64,000 bases of DNA from a virus. This document shows positions 19,800 through 64,000 of the stretch, one piece after another (position 1 is the first letter of the stretch; each line of letters opens with the position of its first letter). A model generated the notes under the pieces. That model did no database searches. It was not told the DNA's origin and was given only the letters and a program-made list of their open reading frames with translations. The stretch is taken from IMG/VR virus record IMGVR_UViG_3300045988_099717, positions 82,967-146,966 of that record. One strand, 5' to 3'. The translations under genes were made by a program, and so were the position numbers.

Positions 19800-21125
19800 T
19801 GGGATTTATGATTATTTAACCAACAAAACCACCATACTTTAGTAGGTGGATGAATTGGTTTGATTAATTTTGAATCAAAATTACAGATAAAAAAATGATT
19901 TCATACAAATACAACATCTATCATTCGAAGAAAACGAAGTATCTTGACAAGATGCTTCGTGAATGTTGTTTTGTATGGAATCATGCGTTAGCTCTACAAC
20001 GTAGGTATCACAAACTGTTTGGGAAATATATATCAATTGGTAAAATGAAGAAACATTTTACCAAAAGAATTAAAAGAAATCTTCTTCATTCCCAAACAAC
20101 ACAAGAAATACTTGAACGTCTTGATGAATCTTATAATCGTTTCTTTAAGAAGTTAGCTAAACGACCTCCTAAGTTTAAATCACCGGAGAAATTCAATTCT
20201 TTTGTATTCAAACAAGGTGGTTTTACCCTGAATGGTAATTGTTTAACAATTAACAAAGGAAAGAAACGATTTAGATTCTCATACAGTAGAGTCTACGAAG
20301 GTAATGTTAAACAAATTAGAATAGTTAGAGAAACGTGTTCCCGTTTTAGTTTGATTATAGTTACAGACTATAATCCTATAAACTCCTATAGAAAGACACA
20401 TGATGGTGCATCTATAGGATTGGATTTTGGCCTGAAAACTTATCTAACTAAAAGCGATGGTAGCAAAATCGATTCTCCATTATTCTTAAAACAATATCAA
20501 AACAAGATTAGAAAACTAAACAAACGGCTTTCTAATGCAAAGAAAGGATCCAACAATAGAAGAAGGAGATTGTTTGAACTCCAACAAACGTATCGTAAAA
20601 TAAACGATCTTCGATCGGATTTTCAATGGGGATTAGCACACCAGTTATGCAAACAGTATGATTATATTTTTATTGAAGATCTAAACATTGAAGGAATGAA
20701 ACGTTTGTGGGGAAAGAAAGTTTCTGATCTCAGTCATTCTTCTTTTATTGATAAGCTAATGTATGTTTCTTCAAAGTATGGAGTAACGATACACAAGATT
20801 GACAAATGGTATCCTTCTTCCAAAACTTGTGAATGTGGCTGCATTAATAAAGGACTGTCGTTACGCGACCGCACGTGGGTGTGCCCAGCGTGCGGAGCGA
20901 TTAACGACCGTGATGTTCTTGCAGCTAAAAATATTCTTCGGAAGGGCATTTCCGAATTGGAGAGCAAGAGTAATTCCAGCGATAGTAATATCGGGGTTTC
21001 TTGCGTTTGTATCCAAGAATCCCATTCGCTTTAGCGATGGGAGTATGTCAAACTGGTAATTGCATAATTTAATTGAACGTAAATCCAAAGGACCCCAGTG
21101 AATCCTTTTTTGACGTATATGATAG
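19800..21125 (+). mobile_element. Candidate IS200/IS605-family element carrying only tnpB (IS1341-like); boundaries approximate
   Basis: An intact TnpB ORF. A hairpin ccacc-N11-ggtgg lies upstream at about 19834-19854. A hairpin aaagga-N10-tccttt followed by TTTT lies downstream at about 21093-21118. The 3' flank could encode a guide (omega) RNA. Confidence 0.5.
19895..21034 (+). CDS. tnpB: TnpB (IS200/IS605 OrfB-type RuvC-like nuclease, RNA-guided family)
   Basis: The N-terminus YKYNIYHSKKTKYLDKMLRECCFVWNHALA is typical of TnpB. A RuvC-I-like D is present (GLDFGLK), an E in FIEDLN, a zinc finger CECGC...CPACG, and a C-terminal DRDVLAAKNI (RuvC-III). Confidence 0.85.
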   Translation: MISYKYNIYHSKKTKYLDKMLRECCFVWNHALALQRRYHKLFGKYISIGKMKKHFTKRIKRNLLHSQTTQEILERLDESYNRFFKKLAKRPPKFKSPEKFNSFVFKQGGFTLNGNCLTINKGKKRFRFSYSRVYEGNVKQIRIVRETCSRFSLIIVTDYNPINSYRKTHDGASIGLDFGLKTYLTKSDGSKIDSPLFLKQYQNKIRKLNKRLSNAKKGSNNRRRRLFELQQTYRKINDLRSDFQWGLAHQLCKQYDYIFIEDLNIEGMKRLWGKKVSDLSHSSFIDKLMYVSSKYGVTIHKIDKWYPSSKTCECGCINKGLSLRDRTWVCPACGAINDRDVLAAKNILRKGISELESKSNSSDSNIGVSCVCIQESHSL

Positions 21126-31940: not shown

Positions 31941-33138
31941 TCACAAAATATTTATTCTAACCGGATTAAACACAAATCCACTATCGATTATCTTTCCAAT
32001 GAAAGAATCACCGACTACTTTTCTTGCTATTCCTATAGCTCCATTAATATCAGCATTAATTAGCTTTCCAACGGAACTTTGGAATAATCCACGTTTCTTT
32101 CTTTTCCCTAAATAGGATTCTTGTTTCTTTAGAGGTTCAAAAGCAAGATGGTCAATCTTTGATGTGTAAGATTCCTCATGAGTAATTACCTCTATCCCTA
32201 AAAGATTTGCTTTGTAAACAATCTTATCAATCAATTTAGAATTTAGAATGAGGAATAGAAACAAAATGTTGGTTATTCCTTTTACCGATATTTATCTCGT
32301 TTTTCCATTCTTTGTTTAATCCAATGATGATTGTTCCTATATTGTTAGATTTACAAAAGTCTACAATGTATCTACTGATTTTATGCAATTTGTCTTCTAT
32401 CCAACAATTTCTAAACAAAGTAATTTTTCTTATTCTATTTGAAGTTCCCTTATTACCAACAAAAGACATCAACTTAGCTTTCTTCTTATTGTACCACTGA
32501 TTTACTGATTTCATAACCCGTCCGTTTATAATGAAAGAATTAGTTTCTACATTACTAATACATGAACATAAATTATTCAATCCTAAATCAATCGAAAGAA
32601 AATTGTCTTTGTTTAAACCAAGATCAGTTTCCTTTCTTTCATAAACTACCTCTACTACATAACATGTAGCTTGAGGGATTATTCTAACTTGTTTTAGTTC
32701 GTCTTTCTTTACATTTGTTTTGATAGGTTTGATTATATCTTTAACAAAATAAATACAATTATCACCCTTTACCCTACAATTGCAGTTGGTGAAAACAACC
32801 ATGTTTTGTTTCTTACCTTGTTTGTATGATGGAAGGTGAGGTCTATGATTTCCGTATTTAGAAGGATTCTTTTCAAAATCCTTCTTGAGTTTTATCCAGG
32901 ATTTTATGTTTTTAAATACCTGTTTAATCACCTGTTGGGATACATGATTAGGTAAATTCCTGAAATCGAATTGGTTTTCTTTGCAAAGTTTGTCTGATAA
33001 ATCAAATTCCTTTAAATAGTTACCTGAAAAGATTCCTTGACGAATGTTGTAAAGAACATAATTATATAACAAGCCGGATTTGAAGCAAATATCCTCAAAC
33101 CGGTTGTCTTTAACTATAGGCCTTTCAACTAATCTCAT
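31941..33138 (-). pseudogene. tnpB: Second TnpB-like gene, frameshifted (300-aa N-terminal ORF plus 107-aa C-terminal ORF in another frame), without a zinc finger
   Basis: The N-terminal ORF has a TnpB-like start and LSIDLGLNN (RuvC-I). The C-terminal ORF has HEESYTSKID (RuvC-II E) and NADINGAIGIARK (RuvC-III). The two frames overlap at 32236-32264. No CxxC pairs are present. Confidence 0.65.
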
Positions 33139-39933: not shown

Positions 39934-41634
39934 TTATTTTTTGTCATCTCCTTTTAGCTTCTTTAAAGTATCTGCAATCGGAAGCTGATCAATGACTCCC
40001 AATGCCGGAGCGACGGTCTTAACAACATTGTTAAGGAAATTACCGGTACTGTTCTGACCGCCGTCAAATACCGTGATATTTCCGAGGTTAATGTGCTCAA
40101 ATGCCTTAACCTGTTCTCCAGCAATTTCTTTCCACTGATTAACCATCTTGTACTGGATGGCTATCTGAGGATTGGATTCTGCTGCTTCCACCATAGCCTT
40201 AAATCCCTCTGCTTCTGCCATCAACGACTTTTTCTTACCTTCGGCTTCTGCTTCCAACTTCATCTTAATAGCCTTTGCTTCGGCTTCTGCTTTTGCCAAA
40301 TTGGCTGCTGCTTCAGCGGCAGCCCGGCGTTTAATCTTTTCTGCTTCAGCATCAGCTTGCAAAATAGCTTCTTGCTTCTGGATTTCAGCCGGCACAATCT
40401 TTTCAGCTCGAAGCGCAGCTTGAACTTTCTCAGCCTTAGCCTCTTCCACTTCTTTATCAGCAAGCTCTTTTGCCGTTTTCACAGCCGCTTCCGATTTAAC
40501 CCTCTCTTCTCCAGCCTTCTTTTCTGATTGAGCTTTGATAACCTGTAATTCTGATTCTGATATAGCAACCTCTTTCTGGGCATTGTTATAACCCACAGAT
40601 GCGTTTTTCTCAGCTTCAGCTTTCTTGATCTGAGCTTCGGAATCTTGGATTGCTATAGCTGCTTGTTTATCAGCCTCAGCCTTATTCTTTCCGACTTCTT
40701 CCATTCTTTCAGCCTCAGCTTTGTTTACCTCAAGTTCTGCCTTAGATCTTGCGATCGCTGATTCCTTATCAGCCAAAGTCTTTGCAATAACCGCAGCCCT
40801 ATCTCTATCGGCTTGAGCTACACCGATCTGTTTTTCTTTATCGGTTAAAGCCAAAGCTACTTCTTTTTCTTTCTTTGTTTCAGCTACTACCGTTTCCTTT
40901 TCTTTTTCAGTATAGGCAATTTGAATCTCTTGCTCTTTTTGGGTATTAGCTACAGCCGTTTCTTTTTCCTTTTGCTGTACAGCAATCTTAATAGCACCCA
41001 GCTTTTCCTGTTCTTCGATATTAGCCTGTGCTTCGTTCAGGGCCTTACTTTCAGCTTCTTTGCCAAGATTCATGATATAGCCGGCTTCGTCTCTGATGTC
41101 ACTGATGTTGATATTTAGGAGGTAAAGGCCTAACTTATTAAGTTCGTTATCAATGTTTTTTCTTGCCTTATCCAAAAACTCATCCCTGTCAGAATTAAGT
41201 TTTTCAATCGTCATTTCAGCAATGATCAAACGCATTTGGCCATAAACGATATCCGTAATAAGATTTTCAGTAGATTCAGTATCCATCCCCAAAAGCCTTT
41301 CTGCTGCATTCTGCATAATTTCAGGATTTGTGCTGATTGCTACTGTAATAGTAGTAGGTACATCCACTCTGATATTTTGAGACGACAAAGCACCGGTGAG
41401 CCTACAATCTATTTGCATAGGCTCCATAGACAAAATATCATAGCTTTGAATAATAGGCAAGACGAATGCCGCTCCACCATGATATAATTTCGCCGATTTC
41501 TTTTCCCCACCTGTCTTACCATAAACGACCAAGACTTGATTAGGTTTACATCTACGATACCTTGATAAGACTCCGATGATTGTCAAAATAATCACTACAG
41601 CTAAAATAGCTGACACGTACATGATTGTTGTCAT
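39934..41634 (-). CDS. SPFH/band-7 (flotillin/YqiK-like) membrane protein
   Basis: An N-terminal transmembrane helix, an SPFH core (YRRCKPNQVLVVYGK...IRVDVPTTITVAIS...) and a long A/E/K-rich coiled-coil tail made of EAEK-type repeats. Confidence 0.8.
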   Translation of the reverse strand: MTTIMYVSAILAVVIILTIIGVLSRYRRCKPNQVLVVYGKTGGEKKSAKLYHGGAAFVLPIIQSYDILSMEPMQIDCRLTGALSSQNIRVDVPTTITVAISTNPEIMQNAAERLLGMDTESTENLITDIVYGQMRLIIAEMTIEKLNSDRDEFLDKARKNIDNELNKLGLYLLNINISDIRDEAGYIMNLGKEAESKALNEAQANIEEQEKLGAIKIAVQQKEKETAVANTQKEQEIQIAYTEKEKETVVAETKKEKEVALALTDKEKQIGVAQADRDRAAVIAKTLADKESAIARSKAELEVNKAEAERMEEVGKNKAEADKQAAIAIQDSEAQIKKAEAEKNASVGYNNAQKEVAISESELQVIKAQSEKKAGEERVKSEAAVKTAKELADKEVEEAKAEKVQAALRAEKIVPAEIQKQEAILQADAEAEKIKRRAAAEAAANLAKAEAEAKAIKMKLEAEAEGKKKSLMAEAEGFKAMVEAAESNPQIAIQYKMVNQWKEIAGEQVKAFEHINLGNITVFDGGQNSTGNFLNNVVKTVAPALGVIDQLPIADTLKKLKGDDKK

Positions 41635-43932: not shown

Positions 43933-45066
43933 TTAATATACTGACTGTTCTTCCTTTACCTCTTGTTCTTGATCTTGATTGTTCGTAACGTCTTCCACAG
44001 TATAGAGCTTGGGCGGCGTCGGCGGCTGGTTGGGGTTCACGAACTTCGTCCCTCCCTCCCCGTACATCCATCCATGCCCCGGCAAGATCTCTGGGTGGAT
44101 TGTATTAGTAAGCTCTTCCATACTAACTTGCCTTACCTTCAGTATATGATGAAACACCAGTCCGGCTGTCCTGAATGATGTTTTGTTTTCAGTTTTAAAC
44201 CGGTCAAGAGTCTGATACCAATCTTTCCCAAATATCATATACTTATCCAGCCCGTACCTACGAGGATTGTGCAAGCCTATCATTAACGTACATAGTTGCC
44301 CCAGCGTATCAGATTGGTAAAAATCAGAAAGACGCGGAGGCTGCTCTTGTGGGCTTTTTATCCTTCCTTCTATCTCTCTGTTGAATTGGGATATGATGAG
44401 GAAAAATATGTTTTTATATACTAATTTAGCTTCGTTCATAACCGCCACCAAATCATCTATAGCCGACTTAGGATCTAATCCCATTCTTTTTATCAAAGCA
44501 ATATGATCGACTTTAAATATTATAAGACGTTTGTCTTTGTGTTTGGTAGCTATATGATACACAGCCGCCTCAAACTCTTTTACCGTACACGGAGCATCGA
44601 TGTATATTATATTATTCCTGATTTCACCTTGAAGGATTTCAAACATCCTCATCTCTTCTACTGTATTAGAATCTTGCCTTCTTAATATTTCAGGAGCCCG
44701 CTTTTTCATATCCTGGCTCATTCTGCGAAGAAGAAGATCTTGAGGATTCATTTCGAACTCGCAATTAACAAGAAAATAATCTTCTGCTTGCGGGTTGATC
44801 ATCGGATTCATCACATTTTCCAATATCTTTTGGGCCACATACGATTTACCTACAGATGGCCGGGCTCCTATGGCAATAGCGTGCTGAGGAAAAATACCTC
44901 CAAGCAAAGCCTCATCAATATAATCGTATCCGGTTTTAGCGGGGATAAGCTCTCCCCGCCTGTATTTCAAGATATTCTCATACGCCTCCTCCATAACCTG
45001 TTTAGAGGTCTTGAATATCCTTCTTATATCTATCTTATTTGCTATCTCCTCGTGCATTTTTGTCAC
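43933..45066 (-). CDS. DnaB-family replicative helicase (RecA-like C-terminal domain)
   Basis: Walker A GARPSVGKSY, plus FLVNCEFEM, IDAPCTV and LIISQFNREIEGR (the DnaB H3/H4 motifs). Confidence 0.8.
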   Translation of the reverse strand: MTKMHEEIANKIDIRRIFKTSKQVMEEAYENILKYRRGELIPAKTGYDYIDEALLGGIFPQHAIAIGARPSVGKSYVAQKILENVMNPMINPQAEDYFLVNCEFEMNPQDLLLRRMSQDMKKRAPEILRRQDSNTVEEMRMFEILQGEIRNNIIYIDAPCTVKEFEAAVYHIATKHKDKRLIIFKVDHIALIKRMGLDPKSAIDDLVAVMNEAKLVYKNIFFLIISQFNREIEGRIKSPQEQPPRLSDFYQSDTLGQLCTLMIGLHNPRRYGLDKYMIFGKDWYQTLDRFKTENKTSFRTAGLVFHHILKVRQVSMEELTNTIHPEILPGHGWMYGEGGTKFVNPNQPPTPPKLYTVEDVTNNQDQEQEVKEEQSVY

Positions 45067-46174: not shown

Positions 46175-46511
46175 TTACACACCCTGGATTATCTTCACAT
46201 GCCTCTTTGTATTCGATAAGAAACTTAAGAAATGAATCATAAGACCCCCATCCGTTTTCTGGTTCGTATCTCAAAAGACTCTTTCTCTTGGAGATCATAA
46301 TATATATACCTTTTGTGAGTATCTTCACCATCTCCTTAGTATCTATTTCCCTGCCCAATTCTTCCGGTCTCCAAACATAATCGTATAGTGTTTCTTTGTT
46401 TTCTGATACGAATATTTTTTGTGCCATCTTGTTCATGTTGTGGGTGATGTTTGCAACCCATTTACGATCCTCTTCTTTCTTCTTGCTCTTAATATAAACG
46501 TCCAGGCTCAT
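46158..46511 (-). CDS. Hypothetical protein
   Basis: 117-aa ORF. Confidence 0.45.
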   Translation of the reverse strand: MSLDVYIKSKKKEEDRKWVANITHNMNKMAQKIFVSENKETLYDYVWRPEELGREIDTKEMVKILTKGIYIMISKRKSLLRYEPENGWGSYDSFLKFLIEYKEACEDNPGCVIEASR

Positions 46512-47502
46512 AATATTTCTCTTTTACTTTGTTACTAATTATCAAATCTGCCACATCATCTCCATCTCCTACATTTTCAACATTTTGAAGATAGTCCGAT
46601 ACTTTTATCCTTGATCTCATCATCATCCCATCTATCTTTTTACTCCATGTCTCAAATGCTTGTCCTTTGTCCGGAAAAGCTACGGTCTTTCTATCTTTTA
46701 AAACATCTATCACTTCCGGCCTTAGATTCTGCAACCCACCGGTAGCTACAAATAACTCATCTGGTTTATTCACAGCGCATATAATAGCCGTCTTTTCTGA
46801 TTCCACCAAATTAACCACCTTATCCGGATACTGGCTTAGAAGATGTTCTCCGAACAGGCATTGTCTAAACAAGAAGTCTCTTGCATGCAACGAGTGATAA
46901 AACATGACATGAGGCCGCTCATTGTCACCGTCTTTTTCTTTCACTCTTTTTACATCAATCTCATTCCCCTGGCTGTCGGTCTTTATATAAAAGTCCATGA
47001 TCTTGCCGGTTCTACATACAAAATCTTTGTCTATCTGCCAGAATATACAACACCCTTTCCATCCCCATAAGTCCATTGTTCCGACATGATACCTCCTGAA
47101 TACATCAGATACCCTTTCTTTTCCCCATAGAGACGATAAAAATCTAAATACGGTGTTTCTGTCGTCTGGAACCACAGTCCTCTCAAACTCGCTAAAAGGT
47201 ATGTAATTTACAACGTCAGGATTTACAGGAGGACGATAAGCTCTTATACACTTGTTTCCCGAAATCCAAAGATCTTTGTCACCTACATCCTTACCAGTAG
47301 GTCGTTTATCATAACCGCAAGTCCGTTCATGATCGCATCTTCCAAACTCGTTTCCAACAACCTGACCTGTTGCCACATCAATATAAGGGGTGAGGCACCG
47401 GCTTTTCCCGCAAGCGGGGCAGGTTAGCTTCAGTCGGCTCCTGCCAGGTCTGCGGTCAAGTTGAAACCGGGGTACGTTTTCGTATCTTCTGAAATCAAGC
47501 AT
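46489..47502 (-). CDS. DNA primase (zinc finger plus Toprim)
   Basis: Zinc finger CPACGKSRC...CDHERTCG. Toprim motifs VNLVESEKTAIICA, VATGG, AFPDKGQ and GDGDDVADL. Confidence 0.7.
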   Translation of the reverse strand: MLDFRRYENVPRFQLDRRPGRSRLKLTCPACGKSRCLTPYIDVATGQVVGNEFGRCDHERTCGYDKRPTGKDVGDKDLWISGNKCIRAYRPPVNPDVVNYIPFSEFERTVVPDDRNTVFRFLSSLWGKERVSDVFRRYHVGTMDLWGWKGCCIFWQIDKDFVCRTGKIMDFYIKTDSQGNEIDVKRVKEKDGDNERPHVMFYHSLHARDFLFRQCLFGEHLLSQYPDKVVNLVESEKTAIICAVNKPDELFVATGGLQNLRPEVIDVLKDRKTVAFPDKGQAFETWSKKIDGMMMRSRIKVSDYLQNVENVGDGDDVADLIISNKVKEKYYEPGRLY

Positions 47503-54989: not shown

Positions 54990-55790
54990 TCAATTGGACA
55001 CAAATGTACAAGTTTTATTAAGATACCCTTCTGTCATCTCTATGAAATTCACACAATCTAATTTGCTTAACTTGTAAATCAATGCCGGATTGTGTACTAT
55101 GGCTATAATTTGTGTTTGTGGTTTATGGAATGACAATACATTATAAATTTGCATTATGTTGTCAATGTCAAGATTCCTATCTGGCTCATCCATGAGAACC
55201 GTGTATTCAAAACTGCTTTCTGTTAATGTTATGCGGTTTCTTTCATAATACTTCAACAGGTTATCAATTCTTTTAATCCAAAACGCATTTGATTTTTTCT
55301 TGTATTCTACAAGATCTTGTATTGGAAATGTATAATCCTTTTGACCGAACATTAAATTGAAAAGTGATTCCAATGATAACACCACTTTCTCTCCATAAGA
55401 TCTTCGAATATTATTCACATACAAATCTAAGTTGCTGATGTTTTTTAATACACTATCTCGATTCATCTCCGCCGATGGCAATAAACGGAATACTTTCCCT
55501 GCATAATCGGATGATATGTCAATCCCATCAAGAACCTTGTCATCATCATCATCAAATATAGGTGGAAAATCCAGTGCCTCGATCGGTATTTCAGAGCACA
55601 TGGATTTCTCACATAACGCATACATTGATATGATGTTAAGCAAGGTTGATTTTCCACTACCGTTTTTACCTATAATTACGTTCACTCCTGGCTTGAAAAT
55701 AAATTCTCTGCCATTTTCAAATGCTTCTATGTCAGAAGCATATTCAAAAGGAGTTTTTGTGTTGTCTTTTATTTTTACCGATGTTATCAT
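54990..55790 (-). CDS. ABC-type ATPase (AAA_21/OLD-N-terminal-like)
   Basis: Walker A GKNGSGKST, an ABC signature-like SYGEK, Walker B TVLMDEPDRNLD and H-loop AIVHNP. Compact at 266 aa. Confidence 0.65.
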   Translation of the reverse strand: MITSVKIKDNTKTPFEYASDIEAFENGREFIFKPGVNVIIGKNGSGKSTLLNIISMYALCEKSMCSEIPIEALDFPPIFDDDDDKVLDGIDISSDYAGKVFRLLPSAEMNRDSVLKNISNLDLYVNNIRRSYGEKVVLSLESLFNLMFGQKDYTFPIQDLVEYKKKSNAFWIKRIDNLLKYYERNRITLTESSFEYTVLMDEPDRNLDIDNIMQIYNVLSFHKPQTQIIAIVHNPALIYKLSKLDCVNFIEMTEGYLNKTCTFVSN

Positions 55791-55801
55791 TGTAATCCTT
55801 T

Positions 55802-56431
55802 TTAAAAATCAATTACCGTCCGAACCATGTCTCCGATGTGCTTGTTGCCGGTGCCCGTGAGGCCACTGGAGAAGACCACGTACCACGCGACGGCCTGGCT
55901 GCTCTCAGTACTGGACCAATACCACGTCGAGGAGAGGGGAGATGCCGAAACATAAGTGAATGCTTTGTTTAGTTCGTCCATATAATGGGCCATTAAATTT
56001 AATTGACCAAGAGATGGTATATACTCGCCATCTTCCAGCAGATTTCTCAATTTTGGATTTCTGGCTACAAGGCGTTCCGTATTGCCGCGTCCGTCAATGT
56101 CAAACAGCGCATCACATTCACGTTCGTAATATGTCCCACTTCCGGATTCTTCACGGCTATCATCGTCAAGCAATTGTACGATATCATGCTCCGTCAGTGA
56201 GATTGCAAATGACATGTATCTGTGCTTCAACCCGATGTATCGTACACAATCTTTGGAGTTATCGCCGGTAAACGGCTCTACGTGTCCGTCTTCGTAGATT
56301 AGATACAGTCCGCTGGCGTGCTCTACTTTGTCATCTTTAGATGGTTCGCGGTCGTTACATACGGGTTGGCCACTCTTGGTGATCGCCGGCATGATTACCG
56401 ACAGGTTTAAATTTTTGATGTTAACATTCAT
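55802..56431 (-). CDS. DUF1566-like (Lcl C-terminal domain-like) protein
   Basis: The C-terminus YWSSTESSQAVAWYVVFSSG...KHIGDMVRTV resembles the DUF1566 signature as I remember it. Confidence 0.4.
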   Translation of the reverse strand: MNVNIKNLNLSVIMPAITKSGQPVCNDREPSKDDKVEHASGLYLIYEDGHVEPFTGDNSKDCVRYIGLKHRYMSFAISLTEHDIVQLLDDDSREESGSGTYYERECDALFDIDGRGNTERLVARNPKLRNLLEDGEYIPSLGQLNLMAHYMDELNKAFTYVSASPLSSTWYWSSTESSQAVAWYVVFSSGLTGTGNKHIGDMVRTVIDF

Positions 56432-56786
56432 TGTTTTTAAATTTTAGGTAGTTATAGATGTATTAATGTTTCGTGTTTTGATTGATTTCCTTTTCCAGTC
56501 TGTCGATCAGTCTTTGATGTTTGGCAGCCACATAGTTACAGTGTATTGCCAAGTTCCTGTCGCGTTCCTTTTCGAGACGCTTTATTTCTTCTAATTTCCA
56601 GTCTTTTTGCATGATCATATATTTTTTATTCCGATGTTAATAACTCAACCTCTGTACAACGAACCCACAGACGGCGGTCTAAACAAACCTCATTGGTACT
56701 TCGGTTTATGTCGACAACTTTTCTTGTTTTCTGTTTGTATTTGACAGATGAACCTATTTTACATTGAGTTTTGAAAACATTGATTT

Positions 56787-57590
56787 TCATTTCTTGATTG
56801 CTTTTTTGAGTTCTGAAATAATATATTTGCCGGGAGAGTGCAGCCGAGCTCCTCCTCGTTCAGCAGCTTGGATTATGGTCCAAATGGGATGCCCTATTTC
56901 TCCATTGTTCGACAATTGGCAAATGGTGTTGAACTCGTCTGGAGGGATAAATAATCTGTTCAGCCTGTTGGTCAGTCCTTCGAAGTTTCTTTCTATCCCA
57001 TCTGTATTGGAATCTTTAGAAAAAAGATTATTTCCGCATCCTCCATTTCCCCCTGTGGGGGATAGAGGGGGAGGATACTTTTCTTTACTTTCTTTTTCTT
57101 TCCTTTCCTTTTCTTTTCTTTTATTGCTATCATTTCCCGTAGCATTTGCTATAGCTTTGCTATCATTTTCGATAGCATTTGCTATATTTTTGCTATTTCC
57201 CCACCTTTTTTCAAGACCTTTCTTTCCAGCTTCAGCTTTTTTTCTACTTTGTTCGTCTTTAATCTCCATTCTTTGTTTGAAACTTTCGGAGTAGAAGTAC
57301 TTACCGTCATCGGTAAAGACAAATAACCCAAAATCTTCAACGACTGATTTTATCAGGGAAGCGTCTTCACGAAGGTCAAAGGCTATCATGTTATAATCTT
57401 TGACACTCGTGTATTCCGGTTCTTCCCTTAATCTTTCAAGGATCATAAAGTAAACACTGTAACCGGCAGCTTTATGCCGCATTCTAAGCCGTATAAGTTT
57501 GTCAGAGTTTCTTGCATTGCTGTCATGGGGAAAGTAGCTTGTCAACTCTTTCCTTGTTGCCATATCATAAATTCTTCTCCACTTTATCAA
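56787..57590 (-). CDS. Replication initiator or replisome organiser (DUF4373-like N-terminal domain) with internal iterons
   Basis: The N-terminus YFPHDSNARNSDKLIRLRMRHKAAGYSVYFMILERL matches DUF4373, which is found in phage replisome organiser proteins. A central KEKERKEKESKEK low-complexity stretch and AIAN repeats are encoded by the iteron-like DNA repeats. Confidence 0.55.
   Translation of the reverse strand: MIKWRRIYDMATRKELTSYFPHDSNARNSDKLIRLRMRHKAAGYSVYFMILERLREEPEYTSVKDYNMIAFDLREDASLIKSVVEDFGLFVFTDDGKYFYSESFKQRMEIKDEQSRKKAEAGKKGLEKRWGNSKNIANAIENDSKAIANATGNDSNKRKEKERKEKESKEKYPPPLSPTGGNGGCGNNLFSKDSNTDGIERNFEGLTNRLNRLFIPPDEFNTICQLSNNGEIGHPIWTIIQAAERGGARLHSPGKYIISELKKAIKK
57124..57200. 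promoter_or_regulatory. Iteron-like direct repeats (candidate origin of replication) inside the initiator gene
   Basis: Five TTGCTAT cores at about 57125, 57146, 57158, 57181 and 57192. Spacings alternate between about 11-12 and 21-23 bp. An adjacent 40-nt T/C-rich AT tract at 57083-57123 could act as a DNA-unwinding element. Confidence 0.5.
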
Positions 57591-57967
57591 TATCCTGTCT
57601 TATTGAGTCTAAGCGATTCCTTCTCGTAACTAAGCAGGCTTCGAAGCGAATCCAGTTGATGCGTGCAAGAAGCATTGAGTCGGTCCAATCGGTCGACCAG
57701 ATAGCATTCGTCTTCCGCGATGCTATCCAGTAAGGCATTCTGCACTTTGGCCGACAGGCAATTTTCTTTCGCTATCCGAATGATCATGTTCTGTATCTCG
57801 TCAGACTTTTTCTTCCGGAGTATTTTTTTTGCCTCTGCGAGCATTTCGCCGGTACGCATCATGTAGACCATGATGACGGATATGCGCTCTTGTATTTCCG
57901 CCGGATTGTTCGAGCAGGTGGTGTTTAGATAATCGCTTATTTCTTTTATCTCTTTCTCCATCGTCAT
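57587..57967 (-). CDS. Hypothetical protein
   Basis: 126-aa ORF. Confidence 0.45.
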   Translation of the reverse strand: MTMEKEIKEISDYLNTTCSNNPAEIQERISVIMVYMMRTGEMLAEAKKILRKKKSDEIQNMIIRIAKENCLSAKVQNALLDSIAEDECYLVDRLDRLNASCTHQLDSLRSLLSYEKESLRLNKTGY

Positions 57968-58317
57968 ACGTTGTTTAAGTACTCATTCACAACTTTCATG
58001 AATTCGCCGATCGAACGGACAACGACATATTTGGCGCCGATCCGACCAAACTCAGCTTCGTATTCCTTCTGGTGTACGGATTGTCTGTTTTTGCCGGCCT
58101 TCAACTCGATCCCCATAAACGGGTGTTCTTTATTTGGATATAGCAAAATGAGGTCCGGGACCCCGGCTCTGACACCCATTTGTTTAAACTTCGCCGCCTC
58201 GACTGCATTGCGATAGCCTCCGTTAGGAACGTGTATCAGCAAGTGTCTGAGGTTCGCATATTGCAAATCGAACCATCTGACTATTGACTTTTGTAATTGA
58301 TCTTCTATATGTCTCAT
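57964..58317 (-). CDS. VRR-NUC domain nuclease
   Basis: HVPNGGYRNAVEAAKFKQMGVRAGVPDLILLYP...MGIELKAGKNRQSVHQKEY contains the PD-(D/E)XK core motifs typical of VRR-NUC. Confidence 0.65.
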   Translation of the reverse strand: MRHIEDQLQKSIVRWFDLQYANLRHLLIHVPNGGYRNAVEAAKFKQMGVRAGVPDLILLYPNKEHPFMGIELKAGKNRQSVHQKEYEAEFGRIGAKYVVVRSIGEFMKVVNEYLNNV

Positions 58318-58395
58318 TCGTAATCGTAATTATCGTATTCATCCGGTTCATAGTCCGGTATGTCGTATCCAAAATCCATCGAGCTGTTTCCTTTC

Positions 58396-58995
58396 TCATC
58401 CTTCACCAGAAGGTGTTACAACCGTGTCACGTCCGGTCTTGTCTACGATGATCTTCTTTCCCGATACGGTGATTTCCGTCTTACACCCTTCAGGTAGGGA
58501 CTGGAAGAATTTGCGAACGGATGGATTGTTGGCGTCGGCTGTTTTATCCGTATCTTTGTCATCTTCGGCATCATACGGGAATATATCCATGAGTGCGGTT
58601 TCGGTGACAGAAGCAATTTCGTAATCGGCCAAAGTGCCCTTCATTCCTTTTTCCAGCACTTCGATAGCTTCTTTCAAATTGGAGGCTTGTGTCAGCATCT
58701 GTGCAGCTGTTTTCTTTTCAGCTCCGCTTTTCTCATCAAGCGTAATGAAGTAGACTTTGATCTTATAGAAGCGGTCGCCATTCTCATTGAAGAATATCTC
58801 GGACAACTTTGCCCGTTTGATGTCTTTTATCACAAACTCACCGCTGATAAAAGGGGTTAATTCTTCGATGATACGAGCCTCTGCTTCTGTAAACGACAAG
58901 GCATCGACCAAATAGGGCTCCGTCACTTTCTTTTGCTTTCCGTCCTCCATTATCTTTTCATAGGAGACTTTACATTCAAACCAATTGTGCATCAT
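58396..58995 (-). CDS. Family-B paralog (DUF4494-like), copy 2
   Basis: See the entry at 49515. It has a C-terminal extension relative to copy 1. Confidence 0.55.
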   Translation of the reverse strand: MMHNWFECKVSYEKIMEDGKQKKVTEPYLVDALSFTEAEARIIEELTPFISGEFVIKDIKRAKLSEIFFNENGDRFYKIKVYFITLDEKSGAEKKTAAQMLTQASNLKEAIEVLEKGMKGTLADYEIASVTETALMDIFPYDAEDDKDTDKTADANNPSVRKFFQSLPEGCKTEITVSGKKIIVDKTGRDTVVTPSGEG

Positions 58996-59027
58996 ACTCT
59001 ATTTCTTTTAATTCGTTCAACCTATTT

Positions 59028-59091
59028 GTGGGACGGAGCGGAATCGAACCGCTCTGACGCATGGCTTATGTGACCACTCCCTTTCGTCCCA
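59028..59091 (-). tRNA. tRNA-like element, apparently truncated: no D-arm and no encoded CCA
   Basis: In RNA sense: GGGACGA-AAGGGA-GTGGT CACATAA GCCAT-GCGTCAG-AGCGG TTCGATT CCGCT-CCGTCCC-A. The T-arm is canonical (GGTTCGATTCC). The acceptor halves match at 6 of 7 positions. The anticodon-like loop CACATAA has A rather than U at position 33. The element is only about 62 nt, so a full cloverleaf cannot form. Confidence 0.35.
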
Positions 59092-59375
59092 AAACTCCCC
59101 TCTGCATATCCTCACGGACGGCAAGGGGAAACTAACCTAAACTAATACCATGCAAAACATACTATTCGACTATTCCCAGACTTTCCAATCCGGGATGTAT
59201 TCGTAATCATTCATTTCAAGCTCCTTTCTAATTTACGGGCCATCTTCCTGCATCTGCGGGCTACATCCAGATCGACCGGCTTAGAGCAGTTGGTGTCTAT
59301 TAGTACTTGCGATCGATTGAGCAGACCTATGATTGTTTTAATATCTGTTTTACTTATCCTGTCTTCATCCTCAAG

Positions 59376-60344
59376 TCATGGAACCTCTATCTTGTCGAAG
59401 TCAATGCCGTGTTCGTTCATGAAGTTGCCGAGAGCGATAATATTTTCACGGGTTGTTGTGACCTTGAAGGCACGAGTTAGAAGTTCCGGCTGTGCCGGCA
59501 CAGGCTGTTCTTTAGGCTGATCCATAAAAGAAGGTTGCCTATTCATCCTTTGATTAGCCGTATTAAAAGGATTGGGTTGGCTAACTTTGGGTTGTTCTGC
59601 TTCTACTTTCTTACGTGCTTCTTCCTGTTCTTTTCGTTCCTGTTCAGCTTTGATACGTGCTTCTTCTGCTGCTTGGGCACGTTCGCGTTGTTCCTTCAGA
59701 CGATTAGCATACTGGATGGTATTGCCAATGTTCATCGTGTCCATATAGTATGTGCGAAGTACGTCAAAATCATCACCGCCAAAGCCTTTAAGCGTTTCAA
59801 GATCTTCGTCAACCTTAGCGAAAACCGTTTCAATGTCTGCTTGTACCGCTTTCATGCTTGTGGACTTGTTAAGCCATTCCTGCTTGAAGATTTTCCGAAA
59901 GTCGATCAGAGTCGTATTTCCATCGTCGAAGTAGGAACGGATAACGGCAAGTTTCTTGTCTTTATACTGCTGTTCGTTCTGCTTGACTACCGTGTCAATC
60001 TTGGCAGAGCATTCGCCAATCAATTTTACGGTTTCAGCCACAACTTCCTTGAACTCCCCGAAAGGTTTCATAAATTCCTTTTCGATTTCAAGACGTTTTG
60101 AGTTGAGAAGTTTGGCCGCCTTGTTGAGAGCAGCTTTATCTCTCTTCGCTTGGTCGATATTGTCATCGTTATAGTTAGATATATCGTACATGGGAAGAGT
60201 TGATTTTACCATGTCTCTGATTTGGATCGCATTAGTAGTAAGGCTACCTAATGTTTTTTCACTAACGACCAGTTCAAGATCGCTTTCTTTGATTGCTAAT
60301 TGTGTGTTCATTTCTCTATATTTTTTATTAGTCCCATCCACCAT
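59376..60344 (-). CDS. Hypothetical coiled-coil protein
   Basis: 322-aa ORF. The K/E-rich central region is encoded by a local GC-rich patch. Confidence 0.5.
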   Translation of the reverse strand: MVDGTNKKYREMNTQLAIKESDLELVVSEKTLGSLTTNAIQIRDMVKSTLPMYDISNYNDDNIDQAKRDKAALNKAAKLLNSKRLEIEKEFMKPFGEFKEVVAETVKLIGECSAKIDTVVKQNEQQYKDKKLAVIRSYFDDGNTTLIDFRKIFKQEWLNKSTSMKAVQADIETVFAKVDEDLETLKGFGGDDFDVLRTYYMDTMNIGNTIQYANRLKEQRERAQAAEEARIKAEQERKEQEEARKKVEAEQPKVSQPNPFNTANQRMNRQPSFMDQPKEQPVPAQPELLTRAFKVTTTRENIIALGNFMNEHGIDFDKIEVP

Positions 60345-60993
60345 TATTATACATGGATAAATCGGCAGAATCTAAATCCGTTTTCTGAATAGCTTCTAAA
60401 AGTTTTTTCTTGGTTTCCCGACACATGTCATAACCATAGCCTTTGTACCGGTATGTACGCTCCCATGTGCTGATTGGGAAAGGAATATTTTCGTCAATGA
60501 CCAGCCTCTTCATATGAAGATGTTCGAAGAATTTCTCATGATAGAGTAGTTTGTACTCGTATGCTACTATACTTGCAGATGAGAATGGAAAATAATCATC
60601 TTCCTTTTCTTCGTATTTAGGCTCCTTATAGTAAGCCATTTTTGCCACAGTAAAGTCGAAGCTCCTGAGAATCTCTTCTGGCTTTCCGAACTCTGACTCT
60701 ATGAACTCTACCCATACCTTTTCTCCCTCTTTCTGGAATGCGCATACCTTCTCATTCCTATACTTAAATTTCCATCCTTCTTTCTGATGTCTTCCTTCAT
60801 TGAACAAATTAACAGCTTCCTGAAAATCGCTTTCACTTTCAAAGAAAATATCAATGTCTTTTACTCTTTCTCCGGAAAGGATATTCTTAAAACATCCTCC
60901 GGCAATGAATCCTTTATGACCTTCCATGTATTTGTCAAGCCATCTTATTTGCCCAAAATTGTCAGGTGTATTTTTCTGATAGTTAGTTTCCAT
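60328..60993 (-). CDS. Polymerase-beta-superfamily nucleotidyltransferase (CCA/poly(A)-polymerase head-like motif)
   Basis: FIAGGCFKNILSGERVKDIDIFF follows the hGG..R..L.G...KDIDI pattern of tRNA nucleotidyltransferase and poly(A) polymerase head domains. A later acidic residue lies in SFDFTV. Confidence 0.4.
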   Translation of the reverse strand: METNYQKNTPDNFGQIRWLDKYMEGHKGFIAGGCFKNILSGERVKDIDIFFESESDFQEAVNLFNEGRHQKEGWKFKYRNEKVCAFQKEGEKVWVEFIESEFGKPEEILRSFDFTVAKMAYYKEPKYEEKEDDYFPFSSASIVAYEYKLLYHEKFFEHLHMKRLVIDENIPFPISTWERTYRYKGYGYDMCRETKKKLLEAIQKTDLDSADLSMYNNGGWD

Positions 60994-60994
60994 T

Positions 60995-61669
60995 TCAATT
61001 AATTATTTTATCTATCATATCGTTAGCAAGGCGTATACGCCTCTCCATCTCCGCGAATATTTTTTCATCCGGCAGGATACGGACGATGTGTATCGGATCG
61101 GATTGATATGGATTATAGGCAATGAAATATACCTCTTTCGCCCCTGTACACATCATGTGTGCCATGCACTGGTAGAAGTATTCATATTTTACGCTTAATA
61201 GGGATGCGTTGTCATAAATCTCGTTCTTGTAGCGCATGAATGTTGCCTGGTTGGGACATTTTATTTCCAGACAGGACTTTATGCCGGTGTTCTCGTCGTA
61301 GTAAAAACCGTCTGGACTGCTGGCAAAATGTGGAATGGTAGGATGTTTGCACGAACCGACCTCCACAATATGCAGACCGGATATTTCGGCATACAGGTTG
61401 CGAGCATCCGCCTCTTGTTCGTTGCCCCATCGTATCGCCTTGCTGGTCACTTCCGTTTGCTTGAGATATTCGGCAAACTGGCTATCGTCATTAACGATAG
61501 CCGGATTCATTGCCCTTTCTGATGCTATTTGATATATGTAGCTTTTCCCTGTTTCAGAAAAGATGTCCGTGCGCCCGCTTTTCATTAGTAAGCCGACATT
61601 GCTGCCTGTGATATTCCCATGACGGGCGCGGAACCAAGCTATCGTATGCTGTGCTGCATTATCAATCAT
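60995..61669 (-). CDS. YqaJ-like viral recombinase-associated exonuclease (lambda-Exo family)
   Basis: The N-terminus AWFRARHGNITGSNVGLLM matches the YqaJ signature W..R.G.ITAS. It is adjacent to RecT. Confidence 0.6.
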   Translation of the reverse strand: MIDNAAQHTIAWFRARHGNITGSNVGLLMKSGRTDIFSETGKSYIYQIASERAMNPAIVNDDSQFAEYLKQTEVTSKAIRWGNEQEADARNLYAEISGLHIVEVGSCKHPTIPHFASSPDGFYYDENTGIKSCLEIKCPNQATFMRYKNEIYDNASLLSVKYEYFYQCMAHMMCTGAKEVYFIAYNPYQSDPIHIVRILPDEKIFAEMERRIRLANDMIDKIIN

Positions 61670-62538
61670 AACAGGGTTTTTTGTGAGGGTTGTTTACTAT
61701 CCGTCTCTGCTTTTTCAACCGGGTATGGTTGCTGTTCTTCCATTTTTTTTTGGACGGCTGCTTTGCTTGCCAGATCGGCCAGCTTGTTTTTTGGCTTGAT
61801 TTCTTCATATTCGACATCCTGTATGTCGTCAGCTTCTTCTTTAGTCAAGAATCCCATGCTGATTTCAGGACAGTACATACGTTGCCAGAATGCAGCAGCA
61901 CGATAAGTAAGCATAAGGCTTGGCATTGTAACCCACTTGCTACCGGTTTTTGTATACCATCCTTCCTTAATTGCCGTTTCAATCGTTATAGGATCGGATT
62001 CAAGTGTCTCCCCTGTAGAAAGTTCAGTTGCGTAGGCAATACATTCAATGTTGTCAACATCTGTACCGTCAAACTCTTTTACCACTATGGTATTACGCTT
62101 AGCAACATTATCCCAAACCGTTTCGTTATATTTGATCTTTCCGACCTTACCGAGACTTCGTTTTCGGTATCGTAGGGATGAATATTTACCACTCATGTTG
62201 ATGGTAGCAATAAGGAATTTGCTCGACCATGAGGGGTTGCCCTTGACAATGTAAAGGTTTTGCATGACCATCAGCGAATTCACGCCCATACGTGTTGCCA
62301 TATCAATCGCAATCACACAGTTGCCAACATTGCCTTTATAGGCTTCTGGTACGATTGTGCTTTCCGTGTACATCTTTGCCATGCGTTGCATGACCTCGAA
62401 CTGTTTCACCATCTGTCCGACCGGAGTAAGTGCAAATTCGGCAGCTTGTTTTGCCTGGGTAATCTGCAGTTCTGTTGTTTGAATCTGTTGTTCCATTATT
62501 ATACTGTTTTTAATGTTGTTCGTTTTTGTAAGCCTCAT
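61666..62538 (-). CDS. recT: RecT-family single-strand annealing protein
   Basis: A RecT-like core (...TESTIVPEAYKGNVGNCVIAIDMATRMGVNSLMVMQNLYIVKGNPSWS...) translationally coupled to the YqaJ exonuclease gene. Confidence 0.6.
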   Translation of the reverse strand: MRLTKTNNIKNSIIMEQQIQTTELQITQAKQAAEFALTPVGQMVKQFEVMQRMAKMYTESTIVPEAYKGNVGNCVIAIDMATRMGVNSLMVMQNLYIVKGNPSWSSKFLIATINMSGKYSSLRYRKRSLGKVGKIKYNETVWDNVAKRNTIVVKEFDGTDVDNIECIAYATELSTGETLESDPITIETAIKEGWYTKTGSKWVTMPSLMLTYRAAAFWQRMYCPEISMGFLTKEEADDIQDVEYEEIKPKNKLADLASKAAVQKKMEEQQPYPVEKAETDSKQPSQKTLL

Positions 62539-62818
62539 ATACGATGCCGATGGCGGAAAGGATCTCCTCCAGCCTTATGCATTTTCTTTGATAGTCACAT
62601 GCAATAATTATGTTATTCTGTGCTTCCAATGCGTATTCAACGAGCTCTCCGTGGCTCATCGCCTGCAAGTCTTCTTTTGTTTTCATTTGCTATGTTTTAA
62701 TAGTTGTACGTGTTCATTTCAAACCTCCAATCTTCCAACATTTCGTCGAATTCTGGATCATTGGTTTCTTCTCCGTCGTAGCAAAGATCGCCGTCCGGGT
62801 TCTTGATGTAGATCTCCT

Positions 62819-62968
62819 TCATTTCCGTTCCTCCTTATGTATTGCATATAATAAGGAAAGGCCACATGCAAAGAAGAGAACAAGGGAATAGTTGTAGAAC
62901 ATCCCGACACCACTGCCTATTGCCATAAGCAAGGCCATCACAAAGATGATTTTGTTTTCTGTTTCCAT
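62819..62968 (-). CDS. Small membrane protein with two transmembrane helices
   Basis: The ATG at 62968 gives METENKIIFVMALLMAIGSGVGMFYNYSLVLFFACGLSLLYAIHKEERK. The track ORF begins at GTG 63019. Confidence 0.4.
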   Translation of the reverse strand: METENKIIFVMALLMAIGSGVGMFYNYSLVLFFACGLSLLYAIHKEERK

Positions 62969-63002
62969 ATCGTTGATTTTTAAATTTGTTTCAAAAAGGA
63001 AA

Positions 63003-63031
63003 CCGTATCTACCTGTCACAGGCCGATACGG
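63003..63031. repeat. Conserved hairpin element, copy 1 (stem ccgtatc/gatacgg)
   Basis: tcaaaaaggaaaccgtatc-loop-gatacgg. The 21-nt left flank is nearly identical to that of copy 2 at 63319-63347. Confidence 0.5.
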
Positions 63032-63318
63032 CGATATTACTACTTATTCTAAACCAATAAAAAATAACTGAGGCCAATCGCGGACTCGATCCGCGTGTAA
63101 ACCCAGGTGAGCTTTTTAGGCGAGACACGTTGATATAATTAAAATTTTCACCTTGTTTATTTGGCCGCCCAACCATCTCTAAGGCGGAATAAATATTTCT
63201 TTCATATCAATGTTTGTTATGTGGCAATACGGTCTTCTTAACCAACCACCGCAAGGATACCCGGATAGGGATTGCCACGAGTTATATAGTATGGAAATAA
63301 AAAGAGTCAAAAAAGAAA

Positions 63319-63347
63319 CCGTATCGGCTTGTCGCAAGAGGATACGG
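63319..63347. repeat. Conserved hairpin element, copy 2 (stem ccgtatc/gatacgg)
   Basis: tcaaaaaagaaaccgtatc-loop-gatacgg. Confidence 0.5.
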
Positions 63348-63418
63348 ATAAGTTGGTTTTGCCAACTTCGTTAGCTGTAAACAATAAAAATTAAAGAATT
63401 AGTTGAGTAAAAATTTGT

Positions 63419-63463
63419 CCCCGGCAGCCGATCCGATCGACAGCTTCGCGCCTTTGTACCGGG
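63419..63463. repeat. 45-nt structured repeat, copy A (cccgg...gccgatcc...gcgcctt...ccggg)
   Basis: About 73 percent identical to copy B at 63859-63903 and in the same orientation. The ends can pair (cccgg/ccggg). Confidence 0.5.
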
Positions 63464-63504
63464 TTTTCTTAACTTTGTAGTGTCAAATCAAAAAAATTAA
63501 GAAA

Positions 63505-63693
63505 ATGAGCAAGTTTATTGAACTAAATTCTGGGAAAGACAAATTTATCGTGAATGTTAATTCTATTTCTTATGTCGAAAGAAGCGACTTGTCTGGTTCT
63601 GTTGTGCATTTTGCCTATTCAAGATCGGATGCTACTGCTGTTTTGTATGTAGATCAAAGTCTTGATCAGATCAGGGAATTAATCGCTGAATAA
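63505..63693 (+). CDS. Small hypothetical protein
   Basis: 62-aa ORF lying between the two copies of the 45-nt repeat. Confidence 0.4.
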   Translation: MSKFIELNSGKDKFIVNVNSISYVERSDLSGSVVHFAYSRSDATAVLYVDQSLDQIRELIAE

Positions 63694-63858
63694 TTCTTTC
63701 TTCCGGAAAACGGGGATTCCTATGATATAAAGGGTTGTTACCTGTTCTGCAATGTGCATTTCTTTTTTAAAGGTTTCCCCGATTCTTACTTCACGTAAGC
63801 GTTTTGTCTTTACTTCTTTTTGAATAAGTACTTTCATAATCACGTTTTTTAATTCGTT

Positions 63859-63903
63859 CCCGGAGGCCGATCCAATCAGCAGCGTAGCGCCTTCATGTCC
63901 GGG
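63859..63903. repeat. 45-nt structured repeat, copy B
   Basis: cccggaggccgatccaatcagcagcgtagcgccttcatgtccggg. It lies inside the doubtful minus-strand ORF 63679-63966. Confidence 0.5.
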
Positions 63904-64000
63904 ATATATCTTATTCGTAACGACGGTTGACCAACTCCATGACCGAGTAACACCGAAAGGGATCATCTGAAAGATGAACGTTACGCGTCACAACCTCACA

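Follow-up and report, generated by a model that had tools for sequence, protein, structure and literature searches.

The window analysed here is a stretch of 64,000 nucleotides (nt), positions 82,967 to 146,966 of the IMG/VR virus record IMGVR_UViG_3300045988_099717, and the subject of this report is a gene on its minus strand, 56787 to 57563 in the list of open reading frames (ORFs), which codes for a predicted replication initiator of 258 amino acids (aa) and which carries, within its coding sequence, an array of short direct repeats, a purine tract and a GC-rich hairpin. The segment 57040 to 57210, which holds these three elements, is probably a theta-type replication origin of the phage, located where the gene of its own initiator codes for the linker; a candidate in-gene origin had been proposed here by a first-pass annotation of the window, and the proposal gains support from the repeats, their phasing and the conservation of tract and hairpin in relatives. 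The initiator gene starts with the ATG at 57563-57561, and an in-frame TTG upstream at 57590 is a possible alternative start.

The previous assignment of the coding sequence to a DUF4373-like initiator is confirmed by profile comparison, as Pfam Lin1244_N (PF14297, formerly DUF4373) matches aa 10-94 (57282 to 57536, minus strand) with an E-value of 1e-10 and 42.6 bits at a cut-off of 25, covering profile positions 1-94 of 95, which places the protein in this family, and PHROG 2562, 'replication initiation protein', matches with E 3e-32. The same designation is carried by the annotated homologues in phages EF62phi, JNU_P2, LBR48 and Porphyromonas phages. With E values up to 5 admitted, Pfam finds Lin1244_N alone and no other initiator family in the N-terminal part and nothing in the C-terminal 97 aa, where NCBIfam equally gives no match. 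Lin1244_N is presumed to be a winged-helix DNA-binding domain. The AlphaFold (AF2) model of the initiator, for which 29 homologues were used and which has a mean predicted local distance difference test (pLDDT) score of 60, displays three to four helices and a beta hairpin in the N-terminal domain (pLDDT 50-73); Foldseek against the PDB gives no match at E <= 0.001, the best ones, at E >= 0.38, being mostly winged-helix regulators, and a sequence search of the PDB finds no relative. The domain continues into a long basic helix before the repeats (57201 to 57281, minus strand, aa 95-121; aa 93-121 in the model), which ends in an AGKKGLEKRW motif with R120 and W121 invariant or nearly so across homologues, and is a candidate specificity determinant. 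Aa 123-186, the stretch coded by repeats, tract and hairpin, are disordered in the model (pLDDT below 50), and we infer that the origin DNA codes for a disordered linker peptide, which can bear the constraint on the DNA. The C-terminal four-helix domain (56790 to 57005, minus strand; about aa 187-258), modelled at pLDDT 85-89, is presumably an adaptor to the helicase or to a helicase loader.

The iteron array, 57124 to 57196, consists of five direct TTGCTAT cores on the plus strand (57124-57130, 57146-57152, 57157-57163, 57179-57185 and 57190-57196), equivalent to 2.2 copies of a 33-bp unit. Their start-to-start spacing is 22, 11, 22 and 11 bp, which makes precise the intervals of about 11-12 and 21-23 bp noticed before. 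TTGCTAT occurs 25 times on both strands of the window as compared to 12.9 +/- 3.6 times in dinucleotide shuffles, none of which reached 25 copies, and its sole cluster in the window is the array, which also has the highest Tandem Repeats Finder (TRF) score, 111, among 41 tandem arrays. The array codes between aa 121 and aa 147, in the linker, so that an in-gene repeat cluster is found between the DNA-binding and the presumed partner-binding domain. Besides the direct copies, each 33-bp unit holds one inverted half-site, GTAGCA at 57139-57144 and GATAGCA at 57171-57177, both absent from the first-pass annotation; the coding strand consequently reads as near-palindromes, ATAGCAAATGCTAT(C), alternating with direct ATAGCAA copies. 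Because the inverted half-sites form near-palindromes, the iteron region folds strongly as single-stranded DNA, better than 200/200 shuffles (z = -4.1 to -4.2).

In the reading direction of the gene, the iterons are followed by the purine tract and, about 17 nt further on, by the GC hairpin. The tract, 57078 to 57122, homopurine on the coding strand and homopyrimidine on the plus strand, extends the 40-nt CTTT-rich tract of the first-pass annotation to 45 nt with 76% A+T and a 5-nt period (TRF: period 5, 9 copies). Its pure pyrimidine run, 57088-57122, is with 35 nt the longest homopurine/homopyrimidine run in the window, the runner-up having 19 nt. The tract is a candidate DNA unwinding element; it is the least stable 45-mer in the initiator gene, but reaches only the 95th percentile of low duplex stability window-wide. 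The CCCCC-TGT-GGGGG hairpin seen previously is present with its inner C5/G5 stem at 57049-57053 and 57057-57061 and the TGT loop at 57054-57056, and is nested in an outer CCTCC/GGAGG stem (57040-57044 and 57070-57074), whereby the whole element, 57040 to 57074, folds with -7.8 kcal/mol.

Conservation among homologous initiator genes

Four IMG/VR scans and annotated phage records, covering phages annotated with Bacteroidota or Firmicutes hosts as well as metagenomes, provided 197 loci with 117 distinct linker regions, which fall into 62 clusters by linker sequence similarity, with binding domains 35-100% identical to the best query. Four extra records were judged by eye and excluded from the cluster statistics. 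While the first-pass annotation had named homologous initiator genes without repeats as evidence against an origin, at least three exact copies of a 6-8-mer follow the conserved ...RW motif in 41 of the 62 clusters, as compared to 69 of 1687 control segments of the same length from the same loci (4.1%). The repeat spacings lie on 11n +/- 1 bp in 69/88 cases (78%) versus 26/140 (19%) in controls; a spacing of 11 bp was counted 27 times among the relatives, one of 21-22 bp 22 times and one of 33 bp 10 times. Position and phasing of the array are conserved while the sequence of the repeat changes by lineage. The core varies with the divergence of the binding domain, from ATAGCAA to ATAACAA, ATCGCCACC (locus L084, 54% identity), AATGCGAACGC, GCAATGCACTT and others, and is ATACAAA in a Porphyromonas phage with a binding domain of 44% identity. 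Of the records judged by eye, those of Vibrio phages XM1 and 1.082.O have GTCATG repeats and that of Flavobacterium phage 1/32 has no clear array.

The similarity extends to phages of Firmicutes. In distant blastn comparisons, the gene shows, in its N-terminal half, a DNA identity of about 72% to the initiator genes of Lactobacillus phages JNU_P2 and JNU_P4 and Enterococcus phage EF62phi, and the match to JNU_P2/JNU_P4 extends through the repeats. TTGCTAT is found at the same position of the gene in five copies in EF62phi and in two copies in JNU_P2, followed by a pyrimidine tract. The alignment of window positions 57098-57536 with JNU_P2 and EF62phi comprises 64-69% protein identity, the C-terminal halves being unrelated. 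In one lineage with an about 87% identical binding domain, every copy of the repeat reads ATAACAA instead of ATAGCAA, and the only residues that separate the initiators of the two types are K115 replaced by L and L/A/V117 replaced by M, within the AGKKGxxKRW motif. The concerted change lends indirect support to a binding of the repeats by the initiator. As it is a single evolutionary event, we consider the link between core and residues as a lead, not as a proof.

The purine tract and the hairpin are equally recurrent. At least three tandem pentamers of the GGAAA/GAAAA/GTAAA type are present in 48/62 clusters versus 5/578 control segments, and 26 tracts of at least 20 nt have a mean autocorrelation of 0.91 at lag 5 and 0.39 at lag 3. 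A hairpin stem of at least 6 bp within 60 nt 3' of the tract occurs in 23/60 clusters as compared to 8.4% of background windows (binomial P = 2e-10). Hairpins of a first class have a TAAC loop, usually with a C-G closing pair, on stems which differ and covary (GAGATTC, TCTACTTC, TCTATATC, TACCTAC, GTATCTC, CATCTAC and CCTCTAC), and TAAC sites with a stem of at least 6 bp number 11/73 in the zone against 0/4770 elsewhere. The second class, C5-loop-G5, to which the hairpin of the window belongs, is found in the zone of 50/197 loci, in about five different loop or sequence contexts, and once in 696 kb elsewhere. It is from this comparison with relatives only that the GC hairpin derives its significance.

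The 33-bp unit occurs 0, 1, 2 or 4 times in near-identical relatives, a variation in copy number typical of iteron arrays; among proteins P0001, P0039, P0040 and P0037, the count is 4, 1 or 0 units versus 2 in the window. A 15-nt ESKEK-coding unit also varies in copy number among near-identical relatives, and in P0037 the initiator is fused by read-through to a downstream 54-aa ORF. Variation of the units and the P0037 fusion may reflect real polymorphism or collapsed metagenome assemblies.

Some relatives deviate at the position of the repeats. In two separate lineages (L029, L030, L139 and L140; protein P0071), an HNH endonuclease domain is inserted there in frame. L029 (nt 1902-3062) nevertheless keeps the purine tract, a TAAC hairpin and two copies of CTAACAA at a distance of 22 bp; the insertion may be a homing element which targets the origin repeats. 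In the linker of L189, at about nt 193-217, an 11-bp stem, AAAACGTTTCG-CCC-CGAAACGTTTT, lies between A-runs and T-runs and resembles a terminator for both directions, halfway along the initiator gene. A further iteron within the codons for the conserved N-terminal motif HD(S/Y)NA, considered in terms of looping or autoregulation, showed a weak association (7/41 versus 14/328) and was dropped; the window gene itself lacks an iteron-like site in these codons (GACAGCAATGC).

DNA signal, coding constraint and the reading as an origin

The first-pass annotation had pointed out that the repeats are visible as AIAN peptide repeats, and indeed the translation contains NIANAIENDSKAIANATGNDSN and KRKEKERKEKESKEK. 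This raises the question whether the repeats are a low-complexity protein linker made by slippage, with a DNA sequence that has no cis-acting function, which would agree with the predicted disorder of the coded segment, with a copy number that varies by whole 33-bp and 15-bp units and with peptide repeats visible across the representatives of the family. However, ATAGCAA is read in two frames, ATA-GCA-A (I-A-N/K) and gAT-AGC-AA (D-S-K/N), each 33-bp unit keeping one 7-mer in two frames, and in relatives with 11-bp arrays copies of the repeat stand in all three reading frames. Neither is the 11-bp phasing a multiple of 3, nor the period of the tract, 5 nt, one of 3 or 6. When synonymous codons were resampled 20,000 times, with the initiator protein kept and the phage's own codon usage applied, five copies of any 7-mer never arose (0/20,000; maximum 4, in 13 trials), the lag-5 autocorrelation of the tract was matched in 19/20,000 and a stem of at least 6 bp was obtained in 235/20,000 recodings. 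Moreover, the peptide differs by lineage, whereas phasing and layout persist and the hairpin stems covary. A mere protein linker is thus highly unlikely. Because of the use of two or three frames and the failure of synonymous recoding to yield five copies, the repeat signal resides in the DNA and not in the peptide, in line with the earlier statement that the DNA signal constrains the coding sequence. The tract translates into K-E-R-K-G-like peptides, and its period of 5 is not the one to be expected from selection for a K/E linker.

From the anatomy and the conservation of the sequence, which are directly observed, we infer a course of initiation at the probable origin. The Lin1244_N domain together with the basic AGKKGxxKRW helix would bind the ATAGCAA cores, five direct and two inverted half-sites. 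Since the spacing of 11/22 bp puts the cores on one face of the helix, bound initiators could oligomerise and bend the DNA or wrap it, in the manner of the O-some of lambda. The resulting strain would open the adjacent 45-bp, 76% A+T, period-5 tract as the unwinding element, and the GC hairpin or clamp at 57040-57074 would bound the bubble, be extruded to stabilise it or act as a signal for loading or priming. Finally, the exchangeable C-terminal four-helix domain would recruit the replicative helicase, here probably the DnaB-like protein encoded at 43933-45066.

More tentatively, the role of the accessory elements could go further. The purine tract may be a distinct opening device, either a mirror repeat prone to H-DNA or a strand-specific single-strand binding site that would serve the initiator or the helicase adaptor, the hairpin being a loading or priming signal. 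Lin1244_N initiator, 11-bp-phased iterons, a period-5 tract such as (GGAAA)n and the covarying hairpin would then possibly form a portable cassette, present in phages with Bacteroidota, Firmicutes and Gammaproteobacteria hosts, that shifts host by swapping the C-terminus only.

Several observations weigh against an origin at this position or give it no support. Analysis of cumulative GC skew, proposed by the first-pass annotation as a check and carried out on the 64-kb window, has no extremum at 57 kb; the curve peaks at about 30 kb, where the genes switch from the plus to the minus strand, and falls monotonically to the end of the window. As the skew follows the coding strand, it is uninformative and neither supports nor refutes the origin. 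A literature search for DUF4373, Lin1244 and PF14297 retrieved nothing on replication, and one for EF62phi retrieved no replication study. DnaA boxes (TTATCCACA, up to 1 mismatch) are not enriched in the window, with 26 versus 20.5 expected, and none lies near the array or anywhere in 55420-64000. A scan of 55500-58500 with Rfam 15 gave no match at E <= 1, and no helicase loader adjoins the initiator gene in the window according to the ORF list and Pfam. As to the elements themselves, over half of the clusters are without a hairpin, the C5/G5 hairpin alone folds no better than composition-matched shuffles (z = -0.4), and nearby intergenic stretches have a lower duplex stability than the purine tract. 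L194 shows no array, L029 and L140 are without a clear array and have the HNH insertion instead, and P0040 lacks any 33-bp unit, which could also be due to assembly collapse. The model of the N-terminal domain is furthermore of low confidence and its structural matches are non-significant. A tRNA scan found nothing.

The absence of GC-skew support at 57 kb would suit repeats that are regulatory sites for the initiator, acting in a block of transcription into the distal operon genes, in titration or in handcuffing, with the true origin elsewhere. In iteron plasmids, the same protein serves control and initiation; the inverted half-sites yield palindromes such as are typical of operators for dimers, and the iterons create TAGCTTTG (57152-57159) and TATTTTTG (57185-57192) on the plus strand, antisense to the initiator gene, both of which fit TAnnTTTG, which we take to be the Bacteroides -7 promoter consensus. 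Nevertheless, exclusively regulatory sites are unlikely, as they leave unexplained the conserved period-5 purine tract and hairpin beside the array and the genes for helicases or loaders that adjoin the initiator gene in relatives, as there is no competing repeat cluster in the window, where the top TRF score is here, and as in-gene repeats are the origin in every studied analogue (PMC7466680; PMC6316719; PMC8965321). Independently of this, antisense or origin-activating transcription starting within the iteron array is conceivable.

Exchange of the C-terminal domain and genomic neighbourhood

Behind the conserved elements, the C-terminal domain of the initiator is swapped among relatives for DnaB_2/DnaD-like (as in EF62phi, where the DnaB_2 domain of the homologue is recognized with E 2e-14), DUF7833, HNH-containing and other unrelated types. 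The cassette of binding domain and origin seems to travel among phages whose hosts belong to different phyla, the adaptor domain alone being replaced. As the exchange occurs exactly at this boundary, and several distant lineages share an identical 23-nt (AAAGG)4AAA, tract and repeats might instead be a recombination junction that provides microhomology for C-terminal swaps, or an RNA element such as a pause, frameshift or antisense terminator, the latter in agreement with the terminator-like succession of a hairpin and a T-run on the antisense strand in L044, L073, L063 and L189. Domain swapping, however, is to be expected as a side effect wherever an origin is conserved, as in the O genes of lambdoid phages, and the lineage-specific 11-bp-phased repeats are left unexplained by a junction or an RNA element, to either of which we therefore assign very little probability. 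A programmed frameshift in the window was rejected, as a slippery heptamer in frame is missing and the hairpin is about 17 nt away from the tract. Likewise, an intrinsic terminator was discarded; the scan calls the inverted iterons at 57158-57177 only and not the GC hairpin, for which Rfam has no match either, and the idea of an antisense terminator fits some relatives only. None of the explanations set against an origin accounts jointly for 11-bp phasing, multi-frame use, period-5 tract and helicase context.

This helicase context is most evident in relatives. Directly 3' of the homologue, a DnaC-like loader is encoded in EF62phi and in a Porphyromonas phage, a DnaB or DnaB-like helicase in Vibrio phage 1.119.O and in L171, and a P-loop NTPase elsewhere; in L171 the initiator gene ends 34 nt past the tract and the DnaB helicase gene is next. 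In the window, the gene for a phage DnaB-family helicase (43933 to 45066, minus strand; Pfam DnaB_C E 9e-17; NCBIfam phage_DnaB E 1e-17 with a score far below the curated cut-off of the model) is located about 12 kb from the initiator gene, in the same minus-strand block and outside the origin itself. Its product is likely the client loaded at the origin.

Upstream of the initiator gene, the minus-strand early block encodes RecT, an exonuclease, DUF1351 and DUF4494 proteins and a VRR-NUC nuclease, and downstream, besides the DnaB-family helicase, a DUF6371 zinc-ribbon protein (46489-47502), an SNF2 helicase and a PD-(D/E)XK nuclease. A packaging site was rejected as an interpretation of the array, which lies within the initiator gene in this early replication and recombination block. 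Close relatives occur on contigs with a length of 52-97 kb as well as in genomes of Parabacteroides.

Of the other genes in the window, the one just downstream of the initiator gene at 55802-56431 (minus strand) codes for a protein with an Lcl_C/DUF3988-like C-terminus and is, at 56000-56307, 97.7% identical to the 151-kb 'phage csAssE-Sib', and 54990-55790 (minus strand) codes for an AAA_21/SMC_N-type ATPase with an AbiEii-like P-loop. A protein of 566 aa in which SPFH/Band 7 and flotillin domains are recognized, an unusual phage cargo, is encoded in the early or middle region at 39934-41634 (minus strand). Two TnpB-like genes, 19895-21034 (plus strand) and 32236-33138 (minus strand), both match OrfB_IS605, the first also a Cas12f1-like TNB domain, and two very large ORFs, 2765-9406 and 22180-28602 on the plus strand, code for 2213 and 2140 aa respectively.

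Known in-gene origins and implications

Lambda O has an N-terminal binding domain and a C-terminal domain for interaction with partners, with the repeats coded between them. The arrangement at the locus had been compared by the first-pass annotation to lambda ori in gene O, and the comparison holds for the layout of N-terminal domain, repeats with AT-rich tract and exchangeable C-terminus. Lambda ori is located in the middle of gene O and combines iterons, whose sites have inverted-repeat character, with an A+T-rich tract, and O also binds single-stranded A+T-rich DNA (PMC7466680). In contrast to the four roughly 19-bp iterons of lambda, the origin proposed here has 7-bp cores spaced by 11/22 bp and a strict period-5 homopurine tract followed by a GC hairpin, and its host belongs to the Bacteroidales. 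Homology to the lambda O family (Pfam Phage_rep_O) is not detected, Pfam at E up to 5 giving Lin1244_N only.

A similar layout is found in phages of Gram-positive bacteria. The replisome organisers ORF13 (Rep) of Lactococcus phage TP901-1 and Rep2009 of Tuc2009 bind direct repeats in their own genes which function as the origin, and phage-encoded resistance (PER) results from the cloned origin (PMC8965321). In the TP901-1 rep gene, an N-terminal helix-turn-helix domain, two TTTTCCAGATGTGG repeats, an A-rich stretch and a C-terminal DnaD-like DnaB_2 domain succeed each other as in the window, although the N-terminal domain is HTH_36 in TP901-1 and Lin1244_N in the window. The type of the C-terminal domain, DnaB_2, is shared between TP901-1 Rep and the EF62phi homologue of the window protein, while the C-terminus of the window protein itself does not match DnaD-like replisome organisers (DnaB_2/TIGR01446) with Pfam at E up to 5 or NCBIfam. 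As BLASTP of the window protein against TP901-1 Rep gives no significant similarity (E 0.78), the shared layout looks like a convergent or modular solution. In Bacillus phage SPP1, G38P binds direct repeats of oriL within gene 38, beside an A+T-rich unwinding element, its partners being a separate loader and a helicase of the DnaB family (PMC6316719). In-gene direct repeats next to an A+T-rich tract are common to SPP1 and the window, but SPP1 has a second copy, oriR, whereas the window has no second repeat cluster, and a sequence link to G38P is not detected, with Pfam finding Lin1244_N only.

Outside of phages, origins of iteron-type theta plasmids with RepA, RepE or TrfA initiators likewise consist of phased direct repeats and an unwinding element served by a winged-helix initiator (PMC4980987). 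In contrast to these plasmids, the window has no nearby DnaA boxes, much shorter repeats and the origin inside a coding sequence, and Pfam finds no Rep_3-type domain in the window initiator. A GC-rich flank, present in some such origins, is known from the RK2 plasmid origin.

The phage of the window, a gut Bacteroidales phage, very probably carries its origin in the initiator gene. To our knowledge, there is no experimentally defined replication origin for any Bacteroidales phage, and the present locus would provide a testable one, located within about 170 bp and with its cognate initiator known. The in-gene origin as a kind is classical; what is new are the specific Bacteroidales origin, a rule that applies family-wide and, as conserved accessories, both the homopurine tract of period 5 and the hairpin with its covarying stems. 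No description of these two from a phage or a replication origin was found in the literature, which was searched literally for the purine tract.

As a model system, the locus would show how a single natural sequence serves as a DNA element and at the same time codes for a protein linker, and the ATAGCAA cores with K115 versus the ATAACAA cores with L115 would be a case for the co-evolution of specificity. Possible uses comprise, besides the annotation of phage genomes, shuttle or phage-derived vectors for Bacteroides and Parabacteroides, and resistance to phages by an origin decoy, as in the PER trick of lactococcal phages, is suggested. For the family as a whole, the rule would be that in Lin1244_N/DUF4373 genes the origin may be read in the linker-coding DNA, recognizable by lineage-specific 11-bp-phased repeats followed by a period-5 purine tract, a rule that would bear on the about 6,100 clusters at 50% identity which carry the domain (6101 cluster representatives at E <= 1e-3 in phmmer).

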